Positions 6,010-22,266 of a stretch of 32,000 nucleotides of DNA are shown one piece after another. The translations under genes were made by a program, and so were the position numbers. The notes under the pieces are model-generated. The model saw only the letters and a list, made by a program, of their open reading frames with translations, was not told the DNA's origin and searched no databases. Position 1 is the first letter of the stretch; the number at the start of each line of letters is the position of its first letter. The stretch comes from Balneolaceae bacterium UBA7797 (GTDB taxonomy: Bacteria > Bacteroidota > Rhodothermia > Balneolales > Balneolaceae), in NCBI GenBank assembly GCA_002480645.1, contig DLCN01000003.1:276355-308354 (forward strand), read 5' to 3'.

Positions 6010-7815
6010 TTATGGATATTCTAAAAGGTAGATGACCGGCTCAGAACCACGATCAGCTAAACGACGGGCTAAAGCGTTTGCATCTCTGAAGGAGTTAAAG
6101 ATCTCAGATACCTGTACATAATAAAGCCCATTTTCCATCCCGAATACTCGGGTATCGATATTTAGGGCTTCTTTTAATGATTGTACGGCAGCTTCTGCGA
6201 GCTGTCGGTTCTCAAATACATTAATTTGTATCTGATATCTGGCCCGGTAATTTCTGAAATCTTCCGTATTTGGCTTGAGTTCGAGATTTCTGGTTAATCC
6301 CTTTTCCCTGATATTGTTAAGAACAGATAATGCATGATCCTGGCGGGTGTATGGTCCATTCACCACAAGAAAACGGTTTTCAGATTTTACGATATAGGAT
6401 TCGATCCCATAATCTCCAAGAATGGTAAATGAATAATCAATGGCATTTTGCTCTGAAGAGAATGAACCAAATTGGATTAGGTAAGTTAGGGTCTCTATTC
6501 TGTTACTTCCTGCATCACATCGGTGAACAAGATTCAGGTTTAACTCAGGCATCTCACTCTTAACAGTTCTGTAATCTTCAATTGCTTTGGTAAAGTTTTG
6601 ATCACCGGAAGAACGAATGGTATACAGGTCGTTATTAAAACCAATATTAAGTGCTACCCCGGTTCTTTCCGTTACTGAGTTTGAGACATCAAAAGCACTG
6701 TTTAAAGATCTGAAGCTGCCAACCTGAATTGCATAACTACAATTATCCCTGGAACCAAGTGAGAAAACAGCATTTGATGATACCGGTTCCGGATCAGGGG
6801 TTTCAGGCTGTTCAGTTACCTTTTCCGGTTGATCTGCAGCTAATGGTTCGTCAGCTTCAGCAATTTCTTCGTCCTCATCAGGAGTCTGTATGACCTCTTC
6901 TTCTGTATCAACCGTTGTAGCATTATTATTGCTAGCTGATGGGGGCTGAACGGGCTCCGGTAATGGTTTGATTGCCGGAATCGCATCAGATATAAACGTT
7001 AGAGAATCGCTAACAGTCAGGAATTGATTGGTCAGTGAATCTATGTTTGCATTTTGTAGAGAATCAGACTCTAACGAATCTGCCTCAGCAAGTAATTCCT
7101 CTTCCGGCTCAGGTTTTTCTTCCATAGAATAATACAAACGAAGCACTACTCTTCTGTTCATCTCCCTCGGAGCCTCAACCCGTTCGCCATTCTCATCGGT
7201 GATATATCTTGGTCGTGAATCCGCGTAACCTGAAGCCTTCAGGCGAGATTTATCAATGCCTTCTGAAATGAAATACTTGACCACATCTGCTGCCCGTGCT
7301 GTAGATAATTCCCAGTTAGATGGATAAATACGAGATGAGATCGGCACATCATCCGTATGGCCTTCAACATCAATATTATAATCGTCGTACTCATTTTTCC
7401 GGATGGCGACAACGATCTTATTCAAAATATCTTTAGCTGATGAAAGAAGGTTTGCACTTCCCGAATTAAAGAAAGAGTCACTGCTGAATCTGATCTTAAT
7501 ATCATTAAGATCACGGTTGATCTCGATCTTACCTGCCTCGATCTCGTCTACAAGGTAGATCTCCAGTTGACGCTGAACTTCTTCGATCGGGGTGGTTATA
7601 TACTCGGTTTCTATCACCGAGGAGTCGTATAAATTTGAGACGGAAAGGGGATCTTGTTTTGTGATCTGAGAGACGGAAAGTAATACGATCAAAAAACCAA
7701 GGATCACCGTAATGATATCGAGATAACTGATCTGCCAGCTATCCTCATCTTCTCCCTCAAAATGACTGTTGGGGAAGAGTGAATTTCTATTTCTATTGGA
7801 TGGTCCCGGACTCAA
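6010..7815 (-). CDS. MotB-like stator anchor: N-terminal MotB TM/plug, OmpA-like peptidoglycan-binding domain, acidic Pro-rich linker and three C-terminal SPOR repeats
   Basis: 601 aa. The TM segment WQISYLDIITVILGFLIVLL carries the single conserved Asp of MotB-type proteins (compare E. coli YADFMTAMMAFF). The OmpA_C-like core is IDVEGHTDDVPISSRIYPSNWELSTARAADVVKYF...GYADSRP...NRRVVLRL (about 7132-7503). Three SPOR-like units lie at about 6013-6741 (YAIQVGSFRS..., YLIQFGSFSS...LVVNGPYT, YQIQINVFEN...YYVQVSEIF). The start codon is TTG at 7815, 18 nt after the motA-like stop; no in-frame ATG precedes the TM helix. Confidence 0.8.
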   Translation of the reverse strand: MSPGPSNRNRNSLFPNSHFEGEDEDSWQISYLDIITVILGFLIVLLSVSQITKQDPLSVSNLYDSSVIETEYITTPIEEVQRQLEIYLVDEIEAGKIEINRDLNDIKIRFSSDSFFNSGSANLLSSAKDILNKIVVAIRKNEYDDYNIDVEGHTDDVPISSRIYPSNWELSTARAADVVKYFISEGIDKSRLKASGYADSRPRYITDENGERVEAPREMNRRVVLRLYYSMEEKPEPEEELLAEADSLESDSLQNANIDSLTNQFLTVSDSLTFISDAIPAIKPLPEPVQPPSASNNNATTVDTEEEVIQTPDEDEEIAEADEPLAADQPEKVTEQPETPDPEPVSSNAVFSLGSRDNCSYAIQVGSFRSLNSAFDVSNSVTERTGVALNIGFNNDLYTIRSSGDQNFTKAIEDYRTVKSEMPELNLNLVHRCDAGSNRIETLTYLIQFGSFSSEQNAIDYSFTILGDYGIESYIVKSENRFLVVNGPYTRQDHALSVLNNIREKGLTRNLELKPNTEDFRNYRARYQIQINVFENRQLAEAAVQSLKEALNIDTRVFGMENGLYYVQVSEIFNSFRDANALARRLADRGSEPVIYLLEYP

Positions 7816-7833
7816 AGTGTACGACTTTATACT

Positions 7834-8631
7834 TTATAGTTGTGTCTTATTCCGGCGCATATGGGCCTGCAGTTTATCGTAGATCTGTAATGAGGTTTTT
7901 TGATTTTCGATAAGTAAAACGCCTTCCAGTATCATTTTTTCACGAAAATATTGAAGTGAAGCAATATTATTCATTTTTCGGGCCATAGGAATGAATATGA
8001 AGTTACCAATGATGATCCCATATAAAGTGGTCATAAGCGCAGCTGCCAGTCCTGTAAGCAGAGACTCTACTTCGTTGAACCCTGAAAGCATCACAATAAG
8101 GCCAAAAAGTGTACCCAGCATTCCAAATACAGGGGCAGATTTACCCATGCTCATTATGATCTGATTGATCTGCAATTGTTTAGAGAAATTCTCCTCAATA
8201 TTTATCTCTCCCAATTCCCGGAGTTCCTCTGAACTATAGTTGGTATCCATCACAGAAAACAAATAGCCTTCGAAGGTTTCCATATAATCTTCACTTAATT
8301 GAGCAACCGCTTGTACCCGGTCTTCTTTGATCATTTTCTGCCATTCTAAGATACGTTGAATATCATCCTCTAAAAGGTCATCAGAGATGGTGCTGTGAGA
8401 GAATAAACGCAGGCTTTCCCGATAGGCTCTCAGTACATTTCTAAATGGGTAACTGATAAAGATACTGGCAGAGACACCACCGATCACAATAGCCAAACTT
8501 GGTAGATTCAGATATTCCAGTGTGGTTGGTATCAGCTCATATTGGGTAAAACCCATTACTAATAATGATCCCCACAGTAAAACCATCATGGAGATCAAAA
8601 AGCTGAGTATGTTTAAGATAGAAGTACGCAT
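7834..8631 (-). CDS. MotA/TolQ/ExbB-family proton-channel protein (MotA-like stator subunit)
   Basis: 265 aa. Two N-terminal TM helices are followed by a charged cytoplasmic loop of about 100 aa. The MotA_ExbB core is MGKSAPVFGMLGTLFGLIVML...LAAALMTTLYGIIIGNFIFIPMARKM, with the conserved Pro residues in TM3 and TM4. It lies immediately upstream of the MotB-like gene. Confidence 0.85.
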   Translation of the reverse strand: MRTSILNILSFLISMMVLLWGSLLVMGFTQYELIPTTLEYLNLPSLAIVIGGVSASIFISYPFRNVLRAYRESLRLFSHSTISDDLLEDDIQRILEWQKMIKEDRVQAVAQLSEDYMETFEGYLFSVMDTNYSSEELRELGEINIEENFSKQLQINQIIMSMGKSAPVFGMLGTLFGLIVMLSGFNEVESLLTGLAAALMTTLYGIIIGNFIFIPMARKMNNIASLQYFREKMILEGVLLIENQKTSLQIYDKLQAHMRRNKTQL

Positions 8632-8643
8632 AAGTGGTAATTC

Positions 8644-9147
8644 TTAAAAATTTTTCCTGAATTTGTCATCAAGCAAACCTTGATTCTGTAGCTCTCTGAG
8701 CACATAGTTTGAGTAGGAGAGCGGTAGATTTTCGTCCAGCTCTAAGGCTTTTCTCCAATCCCGTACAAAATTATCAACCGAACCTAATCCCAGAAAGATA
8801 CTACCTCTAAGAGCAAGAATATCTGCATTTTCTTTAAAACCGTACGCCTTGTTTATATAGTAAAGGGCCTGTTCATAATCTCCGTTATAATATCTCTGTT
8901 GAGCCAGGATATAGAATGTTGTAAGTCCGTTAGCCCTGGCCTGATATTCATTGTACAGATCGATCTTATATTGTTTTTTGATCTCGTTTCTTAATGAATC
9001 AGCTACCGAAGACCGATCACTGTCTTCGTTATCCTGTGTATCCTCAGGATCAGTAAAACTCTCAGCAGAGACATCATCCATCGCTTTTTCACTACTTTTA
9101 CACGAAAAAAGCAGGGCGTAGGCAGGAATCATCATGATCACACCCAA
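8644..9147 (-). CDS. Putative TPR-repeat lipoprotein
   Basis: 167 aa. The N-terminus is hydrophobic and ends in a lipobox-like LLFSC, followed by an acidic stretch. TPR-like helices follow (YNGDYEQALYYINKAYGFKENADILALRGSIFLGLGSVDNFVRDWRKALELD). The ORF-track start is TTG at 9147; alternative ATGs at 9135 and 9132 are in frame, so the start is uncertain. Confidence 0.5.
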   Translation of the reverse strand: MGVIMMIPAYALLFSCKSSEKAMDDVSAESFTDPEDTQDNEDSDRSSVADSLRNEIKKQYKIDLYNEYQARANGLTTFYILAQQRYYNGDYEQALYYINKAYGFKENADILALRGSIFLGLGSVDNFVRDWRKALELDENLPLSYSNYVLRELQNQGLLDDKFRKNF

Positions 9148-9181: not shown

Positions 9182-11062
9182 TCAGTTTTCCTCTTTTACC
9201 AGTTCGCCTTTTTTATGAAGCTCCGCGTAATAACGGATAGACTTCATTAACATTGATTTGGCCGGATTGGTTGCTTTAATATCTTTGATCGGATTCTCCT
9301 GTAATTCCAACCGGATCAGGCGTTGCTCTCTGGAAGGTCGTACAGATAATATCCGGTCAAGGATTTTAGGTTCCAAACCTGCAACAGCTTCCAGTATAGT
9401 GCCTGTATTCAGTTCATTGGCAGCATGCTTAATGATCTCAATATCAAGATCCGGAATCTGTTCTATTGTGATGAATTGTTCTTTTAATGCTTCCGCAACC
9501 ACAGAGCCCGTAGCCTGGAGTTGCTCAATATATTGCCGCTGTTGGGTAACAGGAAGTTTTTCAAGAACCGGAAGGATGTTTTCGGTTCCTTTTCGTTCTT
9601 CTTTTTCCAGCTCGATCAATTCCATGGTTTTATCGAATAGCGAATTTGATATAACCCGATGCTGTTTATAGGTAAGATTATGTAGCGTAGCCATTTTTAA
9701 CATGATGTCAGCTACTCTGTCTCTGTCTAATTGATCCAGTATGGAAGCAGCCCGATATTCATCCAGATAATCAATGATCAGAGCTGCAGTTTGGGTATTC
9801 TCTGTTTTGAGCAATCTGAGAATAACTTTCTCAGATACGTGATCCAGAAAACGGAATAAATTAAGCTGGGAGTGTTTCTGCCTGTTTTCTGATTCACCTT
9901 TGTTACCACCCAGTAATTCGTTGAATTCTGTAGCTATTTGTTTTCGTTCTTCCGTACTGAGAGGGGGTAAGTTATCCAGAGCATCACTGATCGCCTGATA
10001 ATAATCCGGTCGTATATCTTTTTTCAGAGAACGAATAAGGTGTCGATCTACTGACGCAATGACCTGAGCGGCACGCCGGGCTCCCTGGTCCGCATGTTCA
10101 TCCATCCAGTATTCAAACAACAGAGAAATATCCTGTGGCTTATTGAAGAAATTCTGAATCAGAAGATCTACTTCATTCGCTTTATCCGGCTCTATAGTTT
10201 TCAGGATCACTGAATTTGAGGTCTGATCGTTTTTAACTTTTCCTTCAACAGTAAGATCACTTCTTAGATTGCTGCGCTGGGACCGGATTGTAGATTGATC
10301 GGTGGAAGATTTTCGGGTAAAGATGCGAGATATAACCAGAGCGATCAGAAACAATACAAAAAGAACCGCCAGAGGGATGTAATCATTAATGCTTTCAGCA
10401 AAAGTTTTTTCTACTTCGGGCTGATTATTCTGTTGAGGAAGTTGCGGGAGTTCCTGAGCCATATCATCCTGAAAATCAGGCATATTTAAGCGCCGAATGT
10501 TGATCACATCTCCACGATTATCATCTGTTTTAGCAGCGATACCTGTGATCAATCTCATAAATTCCAGTTCACGGGTGGTAAGAGATGAATCAGCATAAAT
10601 ATTAATTACCAGGCTATTCAGTTTAAGAGTACGAATGGTATTCTGATTCAGGATCTTTTCCGGATTATTCTCCACATTTTCATCCGGAAGAAGATTCTCT
10701 TCGGGTAAAAAAGGGAGTCCCGGCATGGTAATATTATTAGGTCGCTGCCTTATGACCTGATTTTGAGTAACGGTGAAGGTTTCGTCGACCATCTCGGCAC
10801 TGATATCAACATCTACAAAAAATGAGCGGGGGTCGAAATAATTGGAAAGTATCTGTAAGACCTGTGCATCGTAACGTTGTTCAAGGGTTGCAACTCTGAG
10901 TTCAAAAGAATCGGAAGTGGTTACATTTTCCCCGGTTTGGGCATAACTATTACCTCCAGCAAAAAGAATGATGAGAGTAAGAGCGAAAACCCAAAGTAAA
11001 TTACTGCTTAAGCCAAATCGTAAGTGCTTAAAATAGATGATTTTGCAATTATAGGTCGACAT
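9182..11062 (-). CDS. Membrane-anchored FliG-like protein: signal/TM, periplasmic domain of about 185 aa, one TM helix, then complete FliG N/M/C-like region
   Basis: 626 aa. The N-terminal h-region is LLWVFALTLIILFAGGNSYA-Q. The periplasmic segment is aa 42-227 (10382-10939) and the TM helix is YIPLAVLFVLFLIALVISRIF (10322-10381). Cytoplasmic aa 310-626 (9185-10135) align by eye with E. coli FliG recalled from memory. N domain: GARRAAQVIASVDRHLIRSL...LSTEERKQIATEF vs [20 protein letters not shown]...ISNKQLTDVLAEF. M domain: FRFLDHVSEKVILRLLKTENTQTAALIIDYLDEYRAASILDQLDRDRVADIMLKMATL vs [55 protein letters not shown]. C domain: SVRPSREQRLIRLELQENPIKDIKATNPAKSMLMKSIRYYAELHKKGELV vs NMSQRAADILRDDLANRGPVRLSQVENEQKAILLIVRRLAETGEMV. 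Confidence 0.7.
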   Translation of the reverse strand: MSTYNCKIIYFKHLRFGLSSNLLWVFALTLIILFAGGNSYAQTGENVTTSDSFELRVATLEQRYDAQVLQILSNYFDPRSFFVDVDISAEMVDETFTVTQNQVIRQRPNNITMPGLPFLPEENLLPDENVENNPEKILNQNTIRTLKLNSLVINIYADSSLTTRELEFMRLITGIAAKTDDNRGDVINIRRLNMPDFQDDMAQELPQLPQQNNQPEVEKTFAESINDYIPLAVLFVLFLIALVISRIFTRKSSTDQSTIRSQRSNLRSDLTVEGKVKNDQTSNSVILKTIEPDKANEVDLLIQNFFNKPQDISLLFEYWMDEHADQGARRAAQVIASVDRHLIRSLKKDIRPDYYQAISDALDNLPPLSTEERKQIATEFNELLGGNKGESENRQKHSQLNLFRFLDHVSEKVILRLLKTENTQTAALIIDYLDEYRAASILDQLDRDRVADIMLKMATLHNLTYKQHRVISNSLFDKTMELIELEKEERKGTENILPVLEKLPVTQQRQYIEQLQATGSVVAEALKEQFITIEQIPDLDIEIIKHAANELNTGTILEAVAGLEPKILDRILSVRPSREQRLIRLELQENPIKDIKATNPAKSMLMKSIRYYAELHKKGELVKEEN

Positions 11063-11102: not shown

Positions 11103-14102
11103 TTATTCTAATGATCCGCCTATATTTATGATCTGATCCAGAGCTTCCATTTCAGGAATATAAATATCCGGATTAAATCTTACAGCCATATTCCAATTCT
11201 CTCTGGCGAGCTCTTTCTCGCCTTTCAAATAGTGGAGGCTACCCTTTAGAGCGTATCCTTGTGCCGTCTTGAAAATGTCCAGCGATTCGTTAACCAGATC
11301 CATCGCCTGTTCAATTCTTTTTCTGTAGAATGCATTCTGTGCCATAATGATCAAACGTAACGAACGGTCCAGATCATTAAGTAAAGACTCTCTGTATGCG
11401 ACCAATTCTCTGTCTGTTTCTAAACTTGCCATGATCGTTTGAAGCGTATCATTCAGCGCTTCCTGCTCTTCATCATAATCTTTTGGAACGATCAGAAAGT
11501 GTAAGCCTTCTATAAAGTCACCTTCAGATTTTGCCTCCACTTCAATATCCAGTTTTTCGGGGATGGTTCTGGAACCAAGAAGATTCAGCTGACTTTGATC
11601 GACGGTAAGTTCATATTTACCCGGAGGGAGTTCATAATCGTAAAAAGTACCATCCGTAAACGTTCTGATGTCTTTTCTGAAGTCATTTTCAGTACCAACG
11701 ATATGGATATTCAATCCTCCCTGAGGCTGGGTATGACCCTCTTCGTATAACCGCTCTACATTACCTTCAATAACGCCCGATAAATAAAAGGGGATATCGA
11801 TCTTCTTAAAGCTGTTCGGGTCGGTTACAAGCGAGAATTTTTCCAGTTCCGGAACCAGCATCGGATTATTCAGCGAAGCCTTCATCATTTCCATATTGTA
11901 CCGGTAATATGACTGCATCTGCGTGTAATAAAGTACTCCGTTCTTATAGATGGGGAAAGAGCCGGACCTTCCGATCCTCATCTTACCTTCTGGTATCAGG
12001 TTATCTTCTTCTTTATCGTACGTATGATTGTTATTGTTATCTACAAACATACGAATCGCAGTTCCTGATTTACCGACCTGATTTCTGCTCGTGATAATGA
12101 AATTCTTATAGTTACTGTCGTAACCCACCGATCCGCGGACATTTTGTGTGGCCGTATAACTTGTTGAATTGGTGGTAAAGGTGGTGGTAGTTCTTGCTTT
12201 ATTGAATTCAAAAATAAAGCCGATTCTGAAATTTGTATTCTGTGTAATGAAATTCTGCCCCAAAGAAACCTGAATTCGGCCGGTTTTCATAACACTTTTC
12301 GAGATCATCATTTCCATGGATTCAGATTGTTTCAAATACGGTCGGTATCTGTAAGTACCTCTGAAAAATGTCCCGATAAGGAAATCAGGGATCTTTTGTT
12401 CTCTGGTTAAACTATAGGTTACAGAACTGTTAACGGAGGCCGCACGAGTCATCTCCAAAGGGTTGAAGGTATCAATCAGTCTGTCACTGTAGCCCAGTCT
12501 TAAGTTCATTTTCTTAACACGAGTGTTCAGATCCAGTCTGTAGTTTGAAAAATTCTCGTTATCTCTGAAGCGGGTATAGGTAGAAGCCCTCACATTTAAC
12601 GGGAAATTGCCGATCCTGAAAGGATAAAATCCGCTTAAGCTGAGCTGACTACTATTTCCACCTTGATTATACAATCCGGATTGTGCAATAAAGTTTGTGT
12701 AATTAACGCTAAAACTGGAGCTGTTTGCGTATATGGCATTAATTCCGGACCTGAAAAATCCATTTGAGATAGCTTCCATGGTTACAATGTAATTTGTAAG
12801 CAGACGCCCTGATACTTTGGAAGTAATGCTGGGACCGGGATTGGAGACTAACCCGTCAAAATACTCAAATCCGGCTCCGGCTGTCAGCCAGTTTGTAACC
12901 CCCACAGTGGTTTTTCCCTGTACAGTATAATTGCGATCTTCAGATCCTATAAGTGAATTTTTTAGCCTTCCTGCGTTTAAGTGATAGGTGACTTCGCCTT
13001 TAGGATTAAAGTTGAATGGAACCTGTACACGTCTCGATTCCTGAATGATCTGTCCCGTAGGACCGTAAATTCTAAGGTCTAATTGTGAGGATCCATAATA
13101 TAACGGTGCAATAAAACGATATCTCCCCAGATCATCCGCTTTTTGAAAATCGATAAGTGAATTGTTTAAGTACAATTCTACTTCTGATTGTGGAGTCACA
13201 TAACCCTGAACTTCGTATTCATCAAAAAACTGACGGCTTTCAATGGGCTCATTAGTTAAACGCACACCAACATATTGCGAATTCAATGCTCCGTCCAGCG
13301 TATTGTCACCAACAGCTACTTTTGTTATTAGCGGTGTATCTCTGATAATATATCGCCAGCGTAGGTTATTAGTGGCGAAGGTCGAGAATTCCGAATTAAC
13401 TGCTGCAATTGTTGAACCCTGCAGATCCCCACCGGCTAATTGAAGACCAATGTTATTACTCATATTAAAGGTAGTAGAGCTTTGACTATTGATCGCAGAA
13501 ATGGAGTAGTCCATGAAGCCTCCATCAAATGCACTCCATTTCCGGTCAAATTCCAGTGGAAAGAATTCGGTGGTAGTTCGGTAACCACGTTGCATATTCT
13601 CTCTTTTTGCCGTTCTTACCGTTCTTTCGATACGTGGAATAGGAATATTGGTCTCCAGATCTAATGCAAGGTTATTGAAATCAACCGTAAAATTTAGCCC
13701 AAAGATATTTTTAAAAATGTCTGGATGTAAGAAATAGTCCAGCTCTTTGATCAGAACCTCTTCCGGTTTGATCTCTGTAGAGGTACCATCAAATGTAATT
13801 GTATAATTTTCAAGATCGATTCGATACGGAATCTGATCGAGCCCAAAATTTCCCTGGACTACCAGACCATTTACATTGGCTTCGAAATCGAGCGTAGAAA
13901 AAAGACCGTTAACAGGCAGGTAGAAAACATCGTCAAGGTAGTAAGAAGTGACGATGCTGTTAATTACACCACGGTGTCTGAATGCAAGATATACCTCGAA
14001 ACTATCATCCTCGTCTACCTGAGCAACACTGTTAACAGGAAACAGTAATCCAAGTAGCAGAGAAAGAATTAAATAACGGGCAAAATTGCATCTTACATTC
14101 AC
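11103..14102 (-). CDS. Outer-membrane fimbrial usher-like protein with a C-terminal CarboxypepD_reg-like domain and TPR-like tail
   Basis: 999 aa with signal peptide LILSLLLGLLFPVNSVAQ. The segment VQGYVTPQSEVELYLNNSLIDFQKADDLGRYRFIAPLYYGSSQLDLRIYGPTGQIIQESRRVQVPFNFNPKGEVTYHLNAGRL (about 12960-13215) follows the usher pattern seen in PapC/FimD (G.a.p.a.V.v.qNG..i....V.pGpF.i.dl....sGdL.v.v.e.dG......v.vp....l..G...Y.l..Gr). A long region of alternating beta-strand-like sequence follows. The C-terminal part has GVIEGNV...TFTDGTFYDYELPPGKYELTV and a TPR-like end (AQGYALKGSLHYLKGEKELARENWNMAVRFNPD). The start is GTG at 14102 and overlaps the chaperone stop (GTGA). Confidence 0.65.
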   Translation of the reverse strand: MNVRCNFARYLILSLLLGLLFPVNSVAQVDEDDSFEVYLAFRHRGVINSIVTSYYLDDVFYLPVNGLFSTLDFEANVNGLVVQGNFGLDQIPYRIDLENYTITFDGTSTEIKPEEVLIKELDYFLHPDIFKNIFGLNFTVDFNNLALDLETNIPIPRIERTVRTAKRENMQRGYRTTTEFFPLEFDRKWSAFDGGFMDYSISAINSQSSTTFNMSNNIGLQLAGGDLQGSTIAAVNSEFSTFATNNLRWRYIIRDTPLITKVAVGDNTLDGALNSQYVGVRLTNEPIESRQFFDEYEVQGYVTPQSEVELYLNNSLIDFQKADDLGRYRFIAPLYYGSSQLDLRIYGPTGQIIQESRRVQVPFNFNPKGEVTYHLNAGRLKNSLIGSEDRNYTVQGKTTVGVTNWLTAGAGFEYFDGLVSNPGPSITSKVSGRLLTNYIVTMEAISNGFFRSGINAIYANSSSFSVNYTNFIAQSGLYNQGGNSSQLSLSGFYPFRIGNFPLNVRASTYTRFRDNENFSNYRLDLNTRVKKMNLRLGYSDRLIDTFNPLEMTRAASVNSSVTYSLTREQKIPDFLIGTFFRGTYRYRPYLKQSESMEMMISKSVMKTGRIQVSLGQNFITQNTNFRIGFIFEFNKARTTTTFTTNSTSYTATQNVRGSVGYDSNYKNFIITSRNQVGKSGTAIRMFVDNNNNHTYDKEEDNLIPEGKMRIGRSGSFPIYKNGVLYYTQMQSYYRYNMEMMKASLNNPMLVPELEKFSLVTDPNSFKKIDIPFYLSGVIEGNVERLYEEGHTQPQGGLNIHIVGTENDFRKDIRTFTDGTFYDYELPPGKYELTVDQSQLNLLGSRTIPEKLDIEVEAKSEGDFIEGLHFLIVPKDYDEEQEALNDTLQTIMASLETDRELVAYRESLLNDLDRSLRLIIMAQNAFYRKRIEQAMDLVNESLDIFKTAQGYALKGSLHYLKGEKELARENWNMAVRFNPDIYIPEMEALDQIINIGGSLE

Positions 14103-14926
14103 CGGATTGAGATCGTTTCTGAAGCAGTGACCGGATCCATCTGGATCAGATCATTTGAAGATAAATCTGGCCTTTGAGATTCAAACAGGGCAGATACACG
14201 GTAAGTGCCGGGAGCAAGGTCGGTAAGATCGAAATCCTGACGATAAACGCCATCGAAGTACATAGAGGTAGAAATGAAACTACGTCGTACTTCTTCTCCC
14301 GCCGGGTTAAACAAAGAAAGTGTAACTGAACCTAAAAAAGGAGAGTTTCCCGTTCTGTTATAATCCACCATAACAGCGAGACTTCCGTCATCATTTAAAG
14401 AAGAACGAATTCCTTCAATTTCAATTCCGGTTGAAACGTCTCCTTTTTTATAAAAAAGTCCGGTTACCTGTTCTACGGTTATACCAACAGTTGCACTAAC
14501 TACCTCAGAGGTTTGGAGCTCTAAGGGTGGTGCTTCCGGTGACGATTTTGTCTTGATTCTTGCCCAGTAGGTGCCATCATTCAGATCATTAGGAGGGGTT
14601 ACTCTTAAACGAACCATCTGGCGTTGACCCGGTGATAACGTGAAGTTCTGAGGGAAAGCTCTGATATAATCCGCAATAGAATATTGTTGCTGAACCAGGC
14701 TATCATCAACTACAGCAGAGCGGTTGCCATCGTTATCAGTACTGCTATAGGCAAAGAAAAAATCTATCGACACTTCCTGAGTTTGGTTTCCGCCATTAAC
14801 CACCATGTAGGACCCAAACCGTGAATTGGCATCAAGAAATAGATTTGTAGGGGCAATAGTAACCTGAGCAAAGGCTACAGAACCAAACAAAAAACAAGCA
14901 AAGACTGTAATTGATATTCGTTTCAT
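14099..14926 (-). CDS. Periplasmic pilus chaperone (PapD-like, two Ig-like domains)
   Basis: 275 aa with signal peptide FACFLFGSVAFAQ. The N-domain pattern VTIAPTNLFLDANSRFGSYMVVNGGNQTQEVSIDFFF...FPQNFTLSPGQRQMVRLRV...DGTYWARIKT resembles the PapD_N signature (v.i.PtR.i......sl.v.N.g..p..vq......f.v.PP.f.l.pg..q.vRi). A second Ig-like half follows. Its stop overlaps the usher-like gene's start. Confidence 0.7.
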   Translation of the reverse strand: MKRISITVFACFLFGSVAFAQVTIAPTNLFLDANSRFGSYMVVNGGNQTQEVSIDFFFAYSSTDNDGNRSAVVDDSLVQQQYSIADYIRAFPQNFTLSPGQRQMVRLRVTPPNDLNDGTYWARIKTKSSPEAPPLELQTSEVVSATVGITVEQVTGLFYKKGDVSTGIEIEGIRSSLNDDGSLAVMVDYNRTGNSPFLGSVTLSLFNPAGEEVRRSFISTSMYFDGVYRQDFDLTDLAPGTYRVSALFESQRPDLSSNDLIQMDPVTASETISIR

Positions 14927-15014: not shown

Positions 15015-15047
15015 AAAAAAAAAGTCTCACAAAATTGTGAGACTTTT
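15015..15047 (-). terminator. Strong rho-independent terminator directly after the putative major pilin gene
   Basis: Perfect stem GTCTCACA (15024-15031) / TGTGAGAC (15036-15043), extendable by A-T pairs, with a 4-nt loop. On the - strand transcript the hairpin is followed by U9 (A9 at 15015-23 on +). It lies 21 nt downstream of the stop at 15069. T4 on the + side makes it weakly bidirectional. Confidence 0.75.
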
Positions 15048-15068: not shown

Positions 15069-15590
15069 TTATTGGTAATCAACAGTGATCGCGATATCGT
15101 CTCCACCAGTGTTTGAAGTAGAGTAGTTACCGGCAGTTTCAGTACCTGCGAAGTTGATAGTTCCACCAACATACACATCCAGAGTACCACCGGAAAGAGC
15201 AGTTGCGTGAGCACCATCACTATCAACAGTTGTGCCGTCAAAGATCTCAACATCCATAGTAGGTAGCGGAGTTGTTCCGTCGGTAAGAGTTGCAGATACA
15301 TCATAAGTAATATCGATTGCAGAGTTGCCAGTACCTGTAATGGTAATTCGACCGCGCTGAGAACCGGTTCCGGCACCAGCATCAACTCCGTCAGCACCTA
15401 CAGTAACGTTACCTGAAGTACCGGTTGCAATAGCACCGAAAGATACCGTATCAACTACAGTGATGTTAAGAGAAGCAAGAACGTTTGCAGCTGCACCAAC
15501 GTTGTCAGATGCACTTGTTTGAGCGAAAGCAGCAGTAGAAGCGATAGCAACTACAGCAAGAACAGCGAATATATTTTTGAAAGATTTCAT
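15069..15590 (-). CDS. DUF4402-type pilin-like secreted protein, putative major subunit
   Basis: The preferred start is the ATG at 15590 (MKSFKNIFAVLAVVAIASTAAFAQ, a classic signal peptide), not the ORF-track start at 15641. The mature protein is Thr/Gly/Ala-rich and has the DUF4402-like layout: N-terminal ...LNITVVDTVSFGAIA..., ...RGRITITGTGNSAIDITY..., and a C-terminal ...VYVGGTINFAGTETAGNYS...IAITVDYQ ending. It is flanked by a promoter-like box and a strong terminator. Confidence 0.7.
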   Translation of the reverse strand: MKSFKNIFAVLAVVAIASTAAFAQTSASDNVGAAANVLASLNITVVDTVSFGAIATGTSGNVTVGADGVDAGAGTGSQRGRITITGTGNSAIDITYDVSATLTDGTTPLPTMDVEIFDGTTVDSDGAHATALSGGTLDVYVGGTINFAGTETAGNYSTSNTGGDDIAITVDYQ

Positions 15591-15626
15591 AGTGTGTGGA
15601 CTAAGTGTTGTTTTGAGTTTCTGATA

Positions 15627-15634
15627 CAAAGTTA
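15627..15634 (-). promoter_or_regulatory. Candidate -7 promoter box (TAnnTTTG) for the major pilin-like gene
   Basis: The minus strand reads TAACTTTG (+ strand CAAAGTTA at 15627-15634), an exact TAnnTTTG match 36 nt upstream of the ATG at 15590. No well-spaced -33 TTTG was found. This is motif-only evidence. Confidence 0.3.
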
Positions 15635-15700
15635 GGAGCAATCAGCAAATACAACAAGTTAGATTCTATTAATCAATTTAGGGAGTTTTTAATGTACTCT

Positions 15701-16225
15701 TTAGTCATAAGAAACAATAAGTAAGGCCTCTCCGGAATAGCTTCCGTTTGGGATGTTTCCAATGTTAATTGCCCCTGTTACATATACAAATACATCTTTC
15801 CAGTAATCGGTATTTGCCCCTGTTGTGCTTGCAAAATTGGTCATGTTAATAAAGCCATAGTTATTTGCCAGTAATTTGGAATCAAAAGGGTCGTCCCCTG
15901 AATTGTTATAATAGATATTCAGATCCAGGGGAATATTATCTTCGATAGTAGGATCAGAATGGCTAAGTGCATCGGGATAATCTAATTCGATAGTAAGACT
16001 TTGAGTCCGGTAGGTTCTGATCTTGAATATTCCAAGACTGAGATCATCGAGACCAATTCTGGTAATTCCGGAGTTTGTGGTGAGCGTACCGAAATTTAAT
16101 TCCTGTTCCACCTCAATGGTCAATTCCGGTTCAACATCAATTTCGATATCTATGATCTGGGCGTTTACAAAGATGGGGCAAATAGACAGAATTATGAGAA
16201 CAGAAAAGAATCTTGCTCTAATCAT
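15701..16225 (-). CDS. DUF4402-like pilin paralogue (minor subunit candidate)
   Basis: 174 aa with signal peptide FFSVLIILSICPIFVNAQ. It has ...ELNFGTLTT... early in the mature protein and the C-terminal family ending VYVTGAINIGNIPNGSYSGEALLIVSYD. Its ATG overlaps the upstream gene's stop by 8 nt (ATGATTAG). Confidence 0.6.
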   Translation of the reverse strand: MIRARFFSVLIILSICPIFVNAQIIDIEIDVEPELTIEVEQELNFGTLTTNSGITRIGLDDLSLGIFKIRTYRTQSLTIELDYPDALSHSDPTIEDNIPLDLNIYYNNSGDDPFDSKLLANNYGFINMTNFASTTGANTDYWKDVFVYVTGAINIGNIPNGSYSGEALLIVSYD

Positions 16226-16820
16226 AACTTACCATGATTGTGATCTGACCCTCGTACGTTCCGGCATCAATTGAGCCCACATTCAATGCCCCATATATAT
16301 AGATGTAAGCTGTCTCGTTGTATAATGCCGGGTTATATCCGCTATATACCGGAGTAGGGGGCGGACCCGGTGGATTATTACCACGATATTTGATCGGGAA
16401 CTGAGCACTTGCAATATTTGAAGCTATACTCATTGTGATAGCCTGACTGGTATTATTGAGCCCTCTGTTTGCGTAAGCGGCATTCAATGTAAAGGGTAAC
16501 CGGCAACTGGGGTCACTTACACAGGCAAGATTTCCATTCAATAGCAGGTAGTCGTCGGCGGTGATATCCACAATAACATCTAAATACTTTACGCCTTCAA
16601 TAGACAGAACCTTGGCATCATTAATATCTTTTGAAACCATGCCTTCATTCATGATCACAATACCAAAATCAAGGTCAGAACCGGGAGACAAATCAGAGAG
16701 AGTCACTGAATAAGAAGAACTATATGAACCGAAGTCTATTTCCTGCGCATAACTATGGTTCAATGAAAAAACTACAAGTAGTACCAGATATATAAAAAGG
16801 ATATGTGGTTTTCTTGACAT
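16218..16820 (-). CDS. DUF4402-like pilin paralogue with a Cys-loop and Pro-rich insertion (tip/adhesin subunit candidate)
   Basis: 200 aa with signal peptide ILFIYLVLLVVFSLNHSYAQ. It has ...DLDFGIVIM... and the C-terminal ending IYIYGALNVGSIDAGTYEGQITIMVSYD. It alone carries NGNLACVSDPSCRLPF (two Cys) and NNPPGPPPTPVYSGYNP. Confidence 0.6.
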   Translation of the reverse strand: MSRKPHILFIYLVLLVVFSLNHSYAQEIDFGSYSSSYSVTLSDLSPGSDLDFGIVIMNEGMVSKDINDAKVLSIEGVKYLDVIVDITADDYLLLNGNLACVSDPSCRLPFTLNAAYANRGLNNTSQAITMSIASNIASAQFPIKYRGNNPPGPPPTPVYSGYNPALYNETAYIYIYGALNVGSIDAGTYEGQITIMVSYD

Positions 16821-16829
16821 TATGATCTA

Positions 16830-17330
16830 TCAGATATAATCGATCTCAATTTTAAATTCGCCTCTGTAGTTTCCCGGTGCTGCATTTTCAAGATTTACTC
16901 TGCCGCCAACCCAGAAATAGAAACGACCCTCTGTATTAAATCGTTGAACTTCATCCTGATTCTCGATAATAATGGATGTAGCCTGTTCTTCGATATTATT
17001 TCTGGAGATCTCGTAAACAAAGGTCAGAGTCCCGGTTTCCTGTTGATTGGTGAGAGTAACTTCTTCGTTATAATCTAACCTGAATTCTGAACGGGGTGTT
17101 CCTATTGCGATCATGAACCCGGCATTGGTGTCCATGATCGGATTTACATAAAGTTCGGTTTGTCCCGGTCTTACCCGACCAAAGGTCATTGTATTTACCG
17201 TGATCAACTCGATGGTTTGAACCATCGTGGTCTTAACGCCAATATTAGCGGTGATCTCGGCAGATTTTTGAGCCTGAGCATCCGTAAAAGCGATGGTAAA
17301 TAATAAAAGTATCGTGAAGATATACTTCAT
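16830..17330 (-). CDS. DUF4402-like pilin paralogue
   Basis: 166 aa with signal peptide IFTILLLFTIAFTDAQAQ. It has ...TMTFGRVRPG... and the C-terminal ending FYFWVGGRVNLENAAPGNYRGEFKIEIDYI, the same G-x-Y-x-G...Y-x end pattern as the three downstream paralogues. Confidence 0.6.
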   Translation of the reverse strand: MKYIFTILLLFTIAFTDAQAQKSAEITANIGVKTTMVQTIELITVNTMTFGRVRPGQTELYVNPIMDTNAGFMIAIGTPRSEFRLDYNEEVTLTNQQETGTLTFVYEISRNNIEEQATSIIIENQDEVQRFNTEGRFYFWVGGRVNLENAAPGNYRGEFKIEIDYI

Positions 17331-17835: not shown

Positions 17836-19368
17836 TTATTGCCCGGTAGTGGTTGTTGTTCCATCACTATCGTCCTTTTCCGTGGTGGTAGTAGCCGGAA
17901 CTTCTTTAACTTTATCTTTCCAATACACTACAGAGAATACGCTCTCACGAGGAAAAGCAGGGGGAATGTACCCTTTTAGACGGGCATCGTATTGATAGTT
18001 TTTTGAATACCCGGAAACCGCCTGATTGGTATTAGCATTAAAAGTACCAACCGGACCACGATTCTTTTGAACAATTCCACCAAATAGATTTATGGTGCCT
18101 TTTAGCCCCCCGGAACTGTTATTATAATTTTCAACATAGAAAGATGAATTCAGTGCCATGATGGAAGCCTGAATATCAATATCCTGCGTACCACTATCTC
18201 TGTGTGCATTCTGGTCAACAACAACATCACTTTCGCTTACAAGCCCCAAAATATCTGTAGTTACGCTATCCACTCTCGGATCGGTATAATAGGTGATGTC
18301 GCCAATGATATCGATGTCATCTTCGGCGTGTACAGTGATCTCACCTTTAACAATTCCTTTTACCTCAGCTTTACCGGAGGTAGAGATGATACCGTTAAAC
18401 TCGTTCATGGTATAGGATTCAGTTTCTTCAGATTCCACATTGTAGGTCCAGCAACCGAACCAACCGCAACGTACTTCCTGGGTTACGGTAGTAGTGATGA
18501 TGTCAACATATCCGAGCTCATCATCAGCGCTGAACATTACTTTAATGTCGTTATCGAAACGAAGCCCGCCATCGTCGGCAGCAGTAACGAGTTTTTCTAA
18601 TTCATAATTAGTCGGAGCTTCTTTTTCCGGTGCATTAAAGTTAGAACCTCCGTAGAAATTCGGGTTTGTCGGATTAGTTTCGTGAGCAACCCAATTATTC
18701 GGGCTGGTGATCAGACCATAAAACGTTGGGTCTCCGGACATTCTGAATGTTCCGTTTGTATGAATCGGACCGTAGATCTCATCCCCGCTAAAGAACCAGA
18801 TCTCCTGTCCATCAGCTCCCAGTTCAGATTGGGTCATGTATGCATACTTACTGAAAGAATCGCGCTGCATCAGAACCTCAGTTTTAACTTCCACATCCTG
18901 GAAAGTGGTGGCGCTTACGAAAAGGGCTTTGTACTGATCCCAGGTACCAACACTATTATCCGTTGGTATATTTTCACTGCTTTGTGTATATGTAGTTAAA
19001 AGGCCACTTACGGTTGTTCCAACCGTAGATACCACATTTGAATTATCATCAGCGGAATAATTGGCTGTTGATGTAATATTGCCAATAGTTCGGAGGGTTT
19101 TGTCGGTTAATGTACTTGTGAGGTTAGAAGTAATATCACTGACATTGGCTACCTCATTAATATCAATAGTACCCGTCCAGTCATTATCCTTTTTCATATG
19201 CTCGATAGCATTATCGATAAGACTCTTGGATAAATTTCTTGCCTGTTGTTCCTGATAATAACTGATCGTTTTTTCAGGGATGGTCTCCATACGTTTGGCA
19301 TTATTCACCTGTACAAGACCAGTGATAATTGTTAAGCCGCTAACTAGAAAAAGTAAACTTTTACCCAT
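17836..19368 (-). CDS. PilX-N-like pilus-associated protein (set 2, large member)
   Basis: 510 aa. The single N-terminal hydrophobic helix is MGKSLLFLVSGLTIITGLVQV, followed by QQARNLSKSLIDNAIEHMKKD. This parallels the set-1 paralogue (SKNTAHSAIQLAMEKINQD) and the PilX_N pattern. The C-terminal part is beta-helix-like (GIVKGEITVHAEDDIDIIGDITYY...INLFGGIV...YQYDARLKGYIPPAFP) with a Thr-rich tail. Confidence 0.5.
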   Translation of the reverse strand: MGKSLLFLVSGLTIITGLVQVNNAKRMETIPEKTISYYQEQQARNLSKSLIDNAIEHMKKDNDWTGTIDINEVANVSDITSNLTSTLTDKTLRTIGNITSTANYSADDNSNVVSTVGTTVSGLLTTYTQSSENIPTDNSVGTWDQYKALFVSATTFQDVEVKTEVLMQRDSFSKYAYMTQSELGADGQEIWFFSGDEIYGPIHTNGTFRMSGDPTFYGLITSPNNWVAHETNPTNPNFYGGSNFNAPEKEAPTNYELEKLVTAADDGGLRFDNDIKVMFSADDELGYVDIITTTVTQEVRCGWFGCWTYNVESEETESYTMNEFNGIISTSGKAEVKGIVKGEITVHAEDDIDIIGDITYYTDPRVDSVTTDILGLVSESDVVVDQNAHRDSGTQDIDIQASIMALNSSFYVENYNNSSGGLKGTINLFGGIVQKNRGPVGTFNANTNQAVSGYSKNYQYDARLKGYIPPAFPRESVFSVVYWKDKVKEVPATTTTEKDDSDGTTTTTGQ

Positions 19369-19377
19369 GACTACACC

Positions 19378-19962
19378 TCAGAAAGGTAAATTGATGTTAT
19401 TTGGAACAAATATCCTTTTCCAAACACTTTTAGGATATTCTTTCACTGAACTTGAAACGGAATAAGGTTCTCCGGTTTCTACAATAAGCTGAACCTCAAC
19501 CTGTCGAACAAATTCGGGATTGGATGTTTCGGTGCCATTTCCAGTGTAATACTTGAGCTGGAAAAAGGTCGCCGGAAATTTAATGGTACCGTATGAATTG
19601 GCACTGGTAGGCCCTACACGCTTCAGATAATAATCATTAGGATTAGAAGTGGTGGTAACCGGGTCGGAGGTATCGAGATACCATCTTACATTGGTTACCC
19701 CAAAATTATCGGTGTCGTGCGCATCAGATTGAAAGATGATATCGTCATCATCTATTCTTGAAAACGGATCAGAAGATCCGGTGTTAAAACCAATGCGATT
19801 AAAATCATTGGTCATAACCGTTACAATATCATTGATATTATTTTGATTGATGGAGTTTAGGGTAAGTTCCTGTGTGGTAAGTAATACCTGCTGGTTAAAA
19901 CTTAAAATGGAGATCAGGAAAATTCCACCTACTAAAAATGTTGTTACAATACCTACGTTCAT
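19378..19962 (-). CDS. Pilin/pseudopilin-like protein (set 2, PilW/GspJ-like member)
   Basis: 194 aa. The N-terminal hydrophobic helix begins right after MNVG (IVTTFLVGGIFLISILSF), followed by MTNDFNRIGFNTG. It is a paralogue of the 204-aa set-1 protein (LTYDFPKIGYNRN; shared ...PNPNDY/F.LKR...). No Glu is found near the N-terminus. Confidence 0.45.
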   Translation of the reverse strand: MNVGIVTTFLVGGIFLISILSFNQQVLLTTQELTLNSINQNNINDIVTVMTNDFNRIGFNTGSSDPFSRIDDDDIIFQSDAHDTDNFGVTNVRWYLDTSDPVTTTSNPNDYYLKRVGPTSANSYGTIKFPATFFQLKYYTGNGTETSNPEFVRQVEVQLIVETGEPYSVSSSVKEYPKSVWKRIFVPNNINLPF

Positions 19963-19971
19963 GCTTTCACC

Positions 19972-20391
19972 TTAGTAACTATATGATTTAACATAATTAA
20001 GGGTGATAAAGATATCGGGATCGAAAGTGGTGTTTACCACTGTTACCCCAACCTGATAGCGACGTATTGAACCGTCATCTTCGATCATTTCCGATTCTGC
20101 ATACAAGTAAAAATCATCGGAATACTGATCACTTGAGCCATAATTATAAGTGATCGTTTTCGGGTAATCACTGTAAATATAGCGTCCATCATCCGGGTCG
20201 AGCTCTTCTTCAGCATAGATCCACTGAACCTTGTCCAATTCATCCTGTGCGATAGCAATAGCCCTGTATTCGGCTTCAGCTCTGTAAAGAGTCTGCCGGG
20301 ACTGGTTATAGCTCCGGGATGTATTTATGGCCAGCATGGAGAAGACCATCATGGCAGCCGTTAAAAAGATTATTTCAGCGTAGCTCGACAT
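19972..20391 (-). CDS. Pilin/pseudopilin-like protein (set 2, small member)
   Basis: 139 aa. The N-terminus MSSYAEIIFLTAAMMVFSMLAI resembles a shortened prepilin signature (Y-x-E-I instead of F-T-L-I-E). AIAIAQDELD is shared with the set-1 small paralogue (VIAIAQDFID). Confidence 0.45.
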   Translation of the reverse strand: MSSYAEIIFLTAAMMVFSMLAINTSRSYNQSRQTLYRAEAEYRAIAIAQDELDKVQWIYAEEELDPDDGRYIYSDYPKTITYNYGSSDQYSDDFYLYAESEMIEDDGSIRRYQVGVTVVNTTFDPDIFITLNYVKSYSY

Positions 20392-20525
20392 TTTCAGAGT
20401 TTATTATATTTGAAAATACTCAATGTTCGCCCCTTATGTAATTAGACTGTATTAATTAAAATAATCTAAAAAAGCTATTTAAGTCTGCTAAAATTACCAA
20501 TCAGCTCCTAAAATGAAAAGGGCGG

Positions 20526-21635: not shown

Positions 21636-21646
21636 AGAACTACTCC

Positions 21647-22261
21647 TTAGTTATCCCGAAGGTTTACTGGTGAGAATCTTTTCGTCCATGAGGTGCTTAC
21701 GTATGAGTCGTTTGAAAAACTATTACGTTTTAAGCCCACAGAACTCTGTGTATTCATGATTATCTCGATCTGAGTGATAGAATCAATCGTGGATTTTGCA
21801 GTTTTTGCATAGATGGGAGTCGGGAGCGGGGTAGTGCTTCCTAGGGATGAATAATACCGGATCTCGAAATCAACAACACCAGTATTCATTTCAACGGTAC
21901 TGCCATTTACTGTTCTTTTAAGAACAAAATCGTTTGGGTTTGGTGTGGATGTGACGGAATCACTTGTAAACTCCCACCGGATCAATTCAAGGGATTCATC
22001 CGCACTGTTGTCTATATTGGCATAGAATTCAATAAAATCATCCCCCGCAGCTCTGATCAGGGTGTCCGGTAATGAATTCCGGTTATAACCGATCTTCGGA
22101 AAATCGTAGGTAAGAGTCTCGACAACTTCTGAGACTTTAGTTTTTTGGATTTCCTGAAGTGTTAATTCATTTCCGCTAAAGTTAGTGTTATAGCCAACTG
22201 TGGTAATGATCACGATCAGAAATCCTGCAATGATATAGCTGAGTATTAATCCAAAGTTCAT
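21647..22261 (-). CDS. Pilin/pseudopilin-like protein (set 1, PilW/GspJ-like member)
   Basis: 204 aa with N-terminus MNFGLILSYIIAGFLIVIITTV. It is a paralogue of the 194-aa protein, starts 5 nt after the upstream gene and ends 11 nt before the downstream gene. Confidence 0.45.
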   Translation of the reverse strand: MNFGLILSYIIAGFLIVIITTVGYNTNFSGNELTLQEIQKTKVSEVVETLTYDFPKIGYNRNSLPDTLIRAAGDDFIEFYANIDNSADESLELIRWEFTSDSVTSTPNPNDFVLKRTVNGSTVEMNTGVVDFEIRYYSSLGSTTPLPTPIYAKTAKSTIDSITQIEIIMNTQSSVGLKRNSFSNDSYVSTSWTKRFSPVNLRDN

Positions 22262-22266
22262 AGTGA

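Follow-up and report, generated by a model that had tools for sequence, protein, structure and literature searches.

The gene described here lies in a 32-kb stretch of contig DLCN01000003.1 from Balneolaceae bacterium UBA7797 (hereafter the window, meaning all 32,000 nucleotides that were analyzed) and occupies positions 9182-11062 of its minus strand, exactly where a sequence-only reading of this DNA had located it. The encoded protein carries, from N to C terminus, a signal peptide, a periplasmic domain with the ring-building motif 3 (RBM3)/beta-collar fold of FliF, a transmembrane (TM) helix, a linker, a helix resembling the C-terminal helix of FliF, and the N, M, and C domains of FliG. Homologous to FliF and to FliG, it departs from each in several defining features and can be regarded as a new variant of the flagellar rotor. 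Beyond what the earlier reading described, the gene is surrounded by a chaperone-usher fiber operon. The features of the fusion gene are the following:

9182..11062, minus strand: FliF(RBM3)-FliG fusion protein, the whole open reading frame (ORF), 626 amino acids
10940..11062, minus strand: N-terminal signal peptide, amino acids 1-41, cleavage predicted between ...SYA and Q (hydropathy and a junction of A or S with Q)
10487..10906, minus strand: periplasmic FliF-RBM3/beta-collar-like domain, amino acids 53-192 (AlphaFold2 model, Foldseek, hhalign)
10703..10726, minus strand: invariant MPGLPFLP motif, amino acids 113-120, in the low-confidence collar loop
10322..10381, minus strand: TM helix, amino acids 228-247, N-out/C-in (hydropathy; aligns with TM2 of FliF)
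10154..10321, minus strand: variable cytoplasmic linker, amino acids 248-303 (18% mean pairwise identity, variable length)
10088..10153, minus strand: probable homolog of the FliF C-terminal (FliG-binding) helix, amino acids 304-325 (...PQDISLLFEYWMDEH; hmmsearch, hhalign)
9899..10102, minus strand: FliG N-domain-like region, amino acids ~321-388 (profile against 5tdy_B)
9563..9859, minus strand: FliG middle domain, amino acids ~402-500 (Pfam, PDB profile, hhalign)
9221..9523, minus strand: FliG C-terminal domain, amino acids 514-614 (Pfam, PDB profile, hhalign)
9293..9340, minus strand: torque-helix equivalent, amino acids 575-590, RPSREQRLIRLELQEN, the most conserved segment (64%)

The fusion gene is not an assembly artefact, since an identical protein is present on 10 contigs from different samples, the layout is common to 68 homolog clusters (569-635 amino acids), and the gene occurs in 49 species genomes, complete chromosomes among them. 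These independent assemblies refute the idea that a frameshift or misassembly joined two genes, a check that the sequence-only reading had itself proposed; nothing was found in its favor, and we give it practically no credence. Among 16 Balneolaceae sequences, identity is 45-59% in the structured parts, 52% in the FliF C-terminal helix, and 64% in the torque helix, and falls to 18-20% in the signal peptide, the segment before the TM helix, and the cytoplasmic linker.

In the C-terminal half, Pfam detects FliG_N (E 3.8e-10), FliG_M (amino acids 412-480, E 1.1e-12, 48.4 bits), and FliG_C (amino acids 514-614, E 6.3e-7), all above the gathering score. A profile built from an alignment of 35 fusion-protein members matched the M and C domains of T. 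maritima FliG in the PDB end to end (E 2e-23), and hhalign placed amino acids 410-613 on residues 113-315 of E. coli FliG with a probability of 96%. The match of the family profile to the N domain is weaker but specific, joining amino acids ~322-388 to residues 3-69 of 5tdy_B (E 5.8e-4). Pfam and the family profile find, in FliG order, the complete N/M/C region that had been claimed from the sequence by eye, and hhalign agrees for M and C. MgtE_N, the competing identity that the earlier reading wished to see checked, scored 23.9 bits, below its cut-off of 25.9, and the profile searches assign this half of the protein to FliG.

Of the charged torque-helix residues of E. coli FliG (K264, R281, D288, D289, R297), two have clear equivalents. 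R578 corresponds to R281 of E. coli FliG and E586 to D289, as hmmsearch and hhalign agree, and both are invariant in the family; the Arg and the acidic residue read by eye at these positions are thus real. The EHPQ motif, which binds FliM, is reduced to E421-N-T-Q424, with Lys at the position of R160 (hhalign), and scans with domains and models found neither FliM nor FliN in the window or in related loci. The FliG part is covalently fused behind a TM helix, whereas canonical FliG is soluble and docks non-covalently.

The relationship of the periplasmic domain to FliF surfaced only through fold search, wider profiles, and distant members. A profile of this domain alone found no match among PDB sequences, and single-sequence hhalign to E. 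coli FliF gave an alignment confined to the C-terminal helix. An AlphaFold2 model of amino acids 40-230 (mean predicted local distance difference test score, or pLDDT, 74; above 90 in structured parts) runs through a helix, a long hairpin, a low-confidence loop, a second long hairpin, a helix, and a strand. The best 18 Foldseek matches of this model in the PDB are all RBM3/beta-collar domains of FliF MS-rings (E 6e-8 to 4e-7, probability 1.0), followed by SpoIIIAG (2.6e-3) and PrgK-type rings (8e-3). The domain is laid out as alpha-beta-beta, then collar hairpins with the loop, then alpha-beta ending at an invariant RGD. A profile of divergent members, searched against 5.8 billion sequences, returned 7 matches in all and retrieved canonical FliF (Pfam YscJ_FliF plus YscJ_FliF_C) at E ~4e-9. 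With hhalign, canonical FliF aligned at a probability of 96.9% across the beta-alpha-beta "...ERGD..." segment, and amino acids 91-195 aligned with FliF 277-385 at 88%. Several distant family members match Pfam YscJ_FliF_C directly.

The sequence-only reading had described two helix-then-strand units in this domain as resembling RBMs. Both units are real and the fold search bears out the resemblance, but they are the halves of one split RBM3 rather than two RBMs (H14-34/E42-63 ... E96-119/H124-138/E147-153 in the model). The fusion protein has no Pfam YscJ_FliF match that would indicate RBM1 or RBM2, the SctJ-like motifs that in FliF make the inner ring about the export gate, and its mature N terminus lies ~11 residues before RBM3 helix 1. 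Within the MPGLPFLP motif, P114, G115, L116, P117, and P120 are invariant, and the motif aligns with the "IPGY" loop of canonical FliF; this loop may be a partner-binding surface.

The protein contains only two hydrophobic segments, amino acids 14-41 and 222-252. The first ends in A or S followed by Q in 35/35 homologs, as it does in seven secreted neighbors, consistent with the Bacteroidetes Q-rule literature on cleavage before Q (PMC5837995, PMC10653852). The N-terminal segment that had been called a signal/TM segment is therefore indeed hydrophobic, although it is probably a cleaved signal peptide and not an equivalent of TM1. The second segment contains the TM helix at 10322-10381, as proposed, with five Lys or Arg residues after it and one before. 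Together these features predict a probably single-pass, N-out/C-in protein with a cleaved signal peptide, and the signal peptide, the positive-inside rule, and the homology to periplasmic rings place the N-terminal ~230 amino acids outside the cytoplasm, which was another point that the earlier reading had marked for checking.

Where FliF would meet FliG, the best PDB match of amino acids 150-330 is residues 419-559 of Salmonella FliF. This match is marginal (E 0.048) but colinear: it aligns the RGD strand, places the TM helix on TM2, and sets "PkeiallfeyWidede" on the extreme C terminus "PRVVALVIRQWMSNDH" (540-559). With hhalign, the same helix aligns weakly with E. coli FliF 530-551 (22 columns, E 0.0039, probability 8.6%). 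The helix is 52% conserved and its W319 is near-invariant. As the FliF-like match ends at amino acid ~325 and the FliG_N match starts at ~322, the junction reads as a seamless FliF-FliG join. Since fliF and fliG overlap by 8 nucleotides in E. coli, loss of the fliF stop codon would be a simple route to such a fusion. The topology that had been called FliF-FliG-fusion-like is literally that of a FliF-FliG fusion, with a FliF RBM3/collar fold (hhalign 88-97%) and a probable FliF C-terminal helix before FliG_N. The accompanying statement that the FliG-like module is attached to the envelope without FliF does not hold, as the protein itself carries a piece of FliF.

The genes and other elements around the fusion gene are as follows:

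6010..7815, minus strand: MotB-type stator B subunit, with a plug, a TM helix with a conserved Asp (SYLDIIT), an OmpA-like peptidoglycan-binding domain, an acidic linker, and two SPOR domains
7834..8631, minus strand: MotA-type stator A subunit, 265 amino acids, with a PomA/MotP-like short cytoplasmic domain (Pfam MotA_ExbB, 1.3e-16)
8644..9147, minus strand: TPR lipoprotein with a conserved lipobox Cys, first gene downstream of the fusion
11103..14102, minus strand: outer-membrane usher, 999 amino acids, with a C-terminal TPR domain (AlphaFold2 model, Foldseek)
14099..14926, minus strand: 275-amino-acid periplasmic protein with two immunoglobulin-like domains, possible chaperone; stop codon overlapping the start of the usher gene
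15020..15047, minus strand: terminator/attenuator-like hairpin with a T-run, immediately following the gene of the candidate major subunit (consensus scan only)
15069..15641, minus strand: DUF4402 secreted protein, candidate major fiber subunit (Pfam DUF4402, 1.2e-12)
15701..17330, minus strand: three further small secreted beta-proteins of 174, 200, and 166 amino acids, two of which are DUF4402-type; their genes share the synteny of the module

The motA/motB pair that had been noticed downstream is formed by the second and third genes after the fusion, behind the TPR gene. MotA matches the MotP/PomA/MotA models of NCBIfam at 1e-24 to 1e-30 and ExbB/TolQ models at worse than 1e-3, and flagellar MotB/MotD models match MotB at 1e-42. 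P173 and P222 of MotA and the channel Asp of MotB are conserved in all family loci compared, the MotA R90 position is always R or K, and no gene of the block is better conserved than motA (64-74%). MotB is unusually long here (601 amino acids), with a ~200-residue acidic, Pro-rich linker between the OmpA-like domain and the two C-terminal SPOR domains; in distant loci, it is of ordinary size (220-237 amino acids).

The lipobox Cys of the small TPR protein is present in every case. The protein is a paralog of the C-terminal TPR region of the usher (usher amino acids ~875-999, 11103-11480), as hidden Markov models (HMMs) of the two cross-match at 1e-9 to 1e-21. In three lineages that lack a separate TPR gene, the TPR is fused in-frame behind FliG_C (P0263 in locus L064, P0237 in L063, and P0203 in L058). 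In these ORFs, a hydrophobic segment with a lipobox-like Cys follows FliG_C and precedes the TPR-like domain. The TPR signal sequence may serve there as a second TM helix, making a three-part fusion, or an internal start may yield a separate lipoprotein. The in-frame fusions and the paralogy together argue for a physical partnership of rotor and TPR protein and for a possible TPR-mediated link to the usher.

The usher has no sequence relative in the PDB, and single-sequence hhalign against E. coli FimD gave nothing significant. Its AlphaFold2 model (pLDDT 81) nevertheless finds FimD/PapC as the best 19 Foldseek matches, with E values down to 3.6e-30 over 730-930 columns, and Pfam Usher is matched in 2/31 homologs (E 5.9e-6). 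In Gracilimonas, the usher has SPOR domains in place of the TPR and is 1171-1549 amino acids long. The 275-amino-acid protein matches PapD_N weakly in 4/21 homologs (best E 0.0024); it had no PDB sequence match and no significant hhalign match to E. coli FimC (E 0.23). Its C-terminal domain resembles the sorting-domain fold of type IX secretion (T9SS), with Por_Secre_tail found in 12/21 homologs (best E 2e-5). The DUF4402 proteins had no PDB sequence match either; the family is probably related to SCPU/Csu pilins. The hairpin at 15020-15047 has a 12-bp stem and T-runs on both strands, and an attenuator-like hairpin after the major pilin gene is typical of chaperone-usher operons. A sigma-70 promoter scan did not rise above shuffled sequences, and Rfam found no match in the window. 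As had been stated, the fusion gene lies outside any flagellar locus: apart from the fusion and motA/motB, the 32 kb hold no flagellar gene, and none for an export gate, rod, hook, or filament.

Farther upstream, the minus strand at 17836-22770 encodes small proteins arranged as two trios in tandem, whose N termini are hydrophobic and pilin-like (MSGYTEIL..., MSSYAEII...), among them a PilX-like protein of 369 amino acids and one of 510 amino acids with DUF4900; the only other Pfam signal is a faint ComGG match. They carry Glu at +3, versus the canonical +5, and are candidate type IV pilins only. In 26-28/49 loci, synteny upstream of the module extends to the second trio and a secreted protein of 130 amino acids. 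Beyond it lie a 2678-amino-acid protein with Laminin_G_3, DUF2341, Invasin_D3, and a T9SS C-terminal sorting domain (22895-30931, minus strand) and a 310-amino-acid protein that also has a T9SS C-terminal sorting domain (31029-31961, minus strand). In 10 loci, the giant gene stands directly before the DUF4402 genes, replacing the pilin-like set.

A genome scan with the closer family sequences found 49 species-level loci with the module, essentially all in Balneolaceae and mostly in non-flagellated members of the family. A ten-gene block in the same order and direction (three to four DUF4402-type genes, the 275-amino-acid protein, usher, fusion, TPR, MotA, MotB) is present in 44-48 of these 49 genomes. 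An exhaustive search with the periplasmic-domain profile returned 182 representatives at 50% clustering, only 19 of them close. The distant members sampled again carry FliG_M and FliG_C, some with an N-terminal LysM domain. Across 10 distinct distant loci, MotAB is adjacent in 9/10, and homologs of the usher, the chaperone-like protein, and DUF4402 are found in 6/10. One type of distant locus (type A: L057, L058, L063-L065) has DUF4402 genes, two homologs of the 275-amino-acid protein, an usher homolog (HMM E 1e-210 to 1e-258), the fusion, an optional TPR gene, MotA, and MotB. Another (type B: L003, L056, L062) has the fusion, a putative outer-membrane protein of ~360 amino acids, a TPR lipoprotein, MotA, and MotB. 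The ~360-amino-acid protein (L003 11838-12923, L056 2550-3650, L062 10846-11922) has a signal peptide, lies between the fusion and TPR genes, belongs to no Pfam family, and ends in ...RF or ...RL; it is possibly an outer-membrane beta-barrel. In L061 (8001-12495), the fusion is split into a 532-amino-acid YscJ_FliF_C plus TPR protein, a 372-amino-acid TPR protein, and a separate 594-amino-acid FliG-type protein, followed by MotA and MotB. Regulatory genes adjoin some of these loci: CheR directly follows MotB in L056 (6180-7001), an AraC-type response regulator and a histidine kinase follow MotB in L058 and L063, and PAS kinases and a response regulator lie upstream of the module in L003.

What might such a protein do? 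The domain identities, conserved functional residues, usher fold, and operon conservation given above were obtained computationally. They are most likely explained by a proton-driven rotor-stator module that serves a chaperone-usher fiber, with gene linkage as the sole tie to the fiber. In its specific form, a minimal flagellar-type rotor with an adjacent MotAB serving the fiber encoded in the same operon, we consider this reading fairly probable. The signal peptide would be cleaved and the periplasmic domain would oligomerize into an S-ring-like ring, as in FliF, whose rings have ~33-34 subunits. Each ring subunit would continue through the TM helix and a flexible linker to the FliF-like C-terminal helix, packed on FliG_N, with one FliG N/M/C unit per subunit beneath the membrane. 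MotA and MotB would be anchored to peptidoglycan through the OmpA and SPOR domains of MotB. Protons would pass via the conserved MotB Asp, and the stator would push the invariant Arg/Glu torque helix of FliG_C, turning the ring or at least exerting force on it. The output would be the periplasmic collar with its invariant MPGLPFLP loop, acting with the TPR lipoprotein on the fiber system (the TPR-tailed usher, the putative chaperone, and the DUF4402 subunits). With no RBM1 or RBM2 in the protein and no gene for an export gate or FliM/FliN in the window, neither export nor chemotactic switching can be the task of this ring.

One may go further and picture the operon as encoding a motor-driven surface organelle, with a fiber built by the chaperone-usher pathway instead of type III export. 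The usher would serve as an outer-membrane bushing, and the rotor ring with MotAB would turn or cyclically force the fiber through the paralogous TPR modules. We offer this extension tentatively and think it rather doubtful.

Several points weigh against a rotor-stator module that serves the fiber. The FliG and MotA/B scores are far below the NCBIfam cut-offs, and the equivalog level for FliG is not reached (TIGR00207, 56.4 bits versus a cut-off of 226.7; PRK05686, 29.3 versus 550). D288 of E. coli FliG aligns with L585, the equivalents of K264 and R297 are not conserved, and the position equivalent to MotA E98 is variable and only loosely acidic, with acidic residues nearby. The type B loci have no usher nearby. 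One locus (L059/L060, GCA_030684735.1) has an unmotorized form, with an usher homolog, a 322-amino-acid LysM plus RBM3-like ring protein, and a TPR protein, and neither FliG nor MotAB; the ring can therefore function without torque. Chaperone-usher assembly is known to need no inner-membrane energy, so the need for a motor is left unexplained, and no periplasm-spanning shaft was identified at the locus. Finally, ring formation, rotation, the link from rotor through TPR to usher, and the effect of the motor on the fiber are steps that we infer.

Some of these observations would fit a non-rotary force transducer or scaffold, in which the ring serves the usher as a static inner-membrane/peptidoglycan platform and FliG and MotAB act in the manner of ExbBD-TonB or TolQRA. 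Proton motive force would then drive pulls, gating (e.g., opening of the usher plug), or load sensing, with no continuous rotation. In the unmotorized variant, ring, TPR, and usher are retained alongside an added peptidoglycan-binding LysM domain, which would oppose rotation, and LysM is also found on some motorized fusions (P0203, P0283). The absence of the switch complex, the degenerate EHPQR motif, and the abundance of SPOR and OmpA anchors in the locus point the same way. However, the parts that were kept are exactly those of the flagellar torque interface, the torque helix is the most conserved segment, MotB is of the flagellar, plug-bearing type, and the RBM3/collar ring is part of a rotor in every known case. 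We therefore regard a non-rotary device as unlikely.

It is also conceivable that the fusion belongs, as an accessory or a paralogous part of the rotor, to a genuine flagellum whose genes lie elsewhere in the genome, as with the second FliG copies of spirochaetes. Some Balneolaceae (Aliifodinibius) carry many flagellar genes (PMC9909488), and Balneola vulgaris has been described as motile with flagella (PMC5167729). A KEGG survey reports Balneola, represented by B. vulgaris DSM 17893, as without flagellar-assembly genes (PMC9909488), and B. vulgaris is not among the 49 loci of our genome scan. Against a flagellar accessory, the module is present in Gracilimonas tropica DSM 19535 (L044), a species described as non-motile (PMC5167729) and reported to lack flagellar-assembly genes (PMC9909488). 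Moreover, in the Balneolaceae loci a MotAB pair of its own always accompanies it, invariably in a setting of usher/DUF4402 genes, and the missing RBM1 and RBM2 mean that the ring cannot house an export gate. We consider this very unlikely.

A decaying remnant of an ancestral flagellum is more improbable still. The scattered flagellar KEGG orthologs of Balneolaceae (fliG, motA, motB, and others) have been read as a broken flagellar pathway with gene loss in progress (PMC9909488). However, 49 species have intact ORFs that are 35-48% identical and keep the functional residues invariant, domains and linkers contrast in conservation, the synteny with non-flagellar genes is fixed, and the same architecture recurs in much more distant lineages. 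Further fusions and accretions of LysM and TPR domains are found, which suggests ongoing adaptive evolution. Conservation, synteny, and distant occurrence effectively refute decay.

That the genes form a Zorya-like or other MotAB-based anti-phage defense system has next to no likelihood: MotAB homologs outside flagellar loci are often Zorya and MotB does match ZorB models (E 1e-14 to 4e-19), but that similarity is generic to MotB-type proteins, flagellar MotB/MotD models score better (1e-42), MotA is short (265 amino acids) and flagellar-type, the neighbors encode secreted fibers and not nucleases or helicases, and PADLOC, which found no ZorA, ZorC, or ZorD, rejects it.

To our knowledge, the interface of FliG torque helix and MotA had not been described outside flagella. 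The present module keeps it under clear constraint, with its own stator, in a locus without export apparatus, rod, or switch, which suggests that a flagellar-type ion-driven motor has been reused for something other than a flagellum. The searchable literature, with subscription-only papers outside its coverage, holds no account of this fusion family, nor of usher operons that include a stator/FliG module; among natural FliF-FliG fusions, we found only the chlamydial one described (PMC4768692). The module is a candidate new motor-driven surface system in the abundant marine and hypersaline Balneolaceae, and its recognition corrects annotations that take the fusion and MotAB genes for what a broken flagellar pathway has left of FliG/MotAB. 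It offers structural and biophysical studies a natural minimal rotor in which one chain holds both S-ring and FliG, as well as a testable case of flagellar-motor modularity that bears on the evolution of the motor relative to the type III export core. Experiments are feasible in cultured carriers (Gracilimonas tropica DSM 19535, Balneola sp. EhC07). If the fiber is indeed turned as a surface organelle, rotary appendages could be built in a second way that needs no export gate. The flagellar rotor-stator pair would then be a module that can be transferred, whether it was exapted from flagella or reflects a stage before the type III secretion system.

How does the module compare with known systems? 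We know of no chaperone-usher system with an inner-membrane motor. With chaperone-usher pili (FimD/PapC; archaic Csu/CupE), the operon shares the usher fold (E 3.6e-30) and the sequence of subunit genes, attenuator-like hairpin, chaperone-like gene, and usher. It differs in the C-terminal TPR (or SPOR) extension of the usher and in a putative chaperone and subunits without detectable sequence relation to FimC or known pilins. GldLM of the T9SS, ExbBD-TonB, and TolQRA are similar as a works-like analogy only, in that a MotAB-family ion motor is encoded with, and presumably powers, an outer-membrane or surface system. In contrast to the present module, they pass force via a B-subunit partner or via TonB, TolA, or GldM shafts, and none has a FliG torque interface or a FliF ring.

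Fusions of FliF to FliG have precedents. In Salmonella, they were reportedly engineered by Francis in 1992 and by Thomas in 2001. Engineered fusions assemble (S-)rings and support rotation (PMC4768692, PMC11481574). Like the Salmonella constructs and Vibrio FliFG (PDB 8z4d/8z4g), the present protein joins FliF head-to-tail to FliG, but those are laboratory constructs with full-length FliF in a complete flagellum, whereas this one is natural, has only RBM3, and lies outside a flagellar locus. The FliF-FliG fusion of Chlamydiaceae is likewise natural and occurs in organisms without flagella. However, the retained domains differ: the chlamydial protein (~330 amino acids) has RBM2 and an RBM-like domain, no SpoIIIAG-like RBM3, and only a FliG-M-like domain (Bergeron 2016, PMC4768692), whereas the present fusion has RBM3, full FliG N/M/C, and its own MotAB. 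The chlamydial fusion lacks a torque helix and a MotAB of its own, and a relation to the injectisome has been suggested for it (PMC4768692).

The closest comparison is with the core of the flagellar rotor, FliF and FliG with the MotA5B2 stator. The flagellum uses two polypeptides where the fusion is one, and the fusion lacks RBM1 and RBM2, with a probably cleaved signal peptide in place of TM1. Its EHPQR motif is degenerate, the equivalents of D288, K264, and R297 are lost, and equivalog cut-offs are far off. Genes for an export gate, FliM/FliN, a rod, a hook, or a filament are absent from the window, and the module sits instead in a chaperone-usher operon. What the two have in common is the RBM3/beta-collar fold, the TM helix, probably the FliF C-terminal helix, and the N/M/C order of FliG, together with the R281- and D289-equivalent torque residues, a plug-bearing MotB with its channel Asp, and the MotA prolines.

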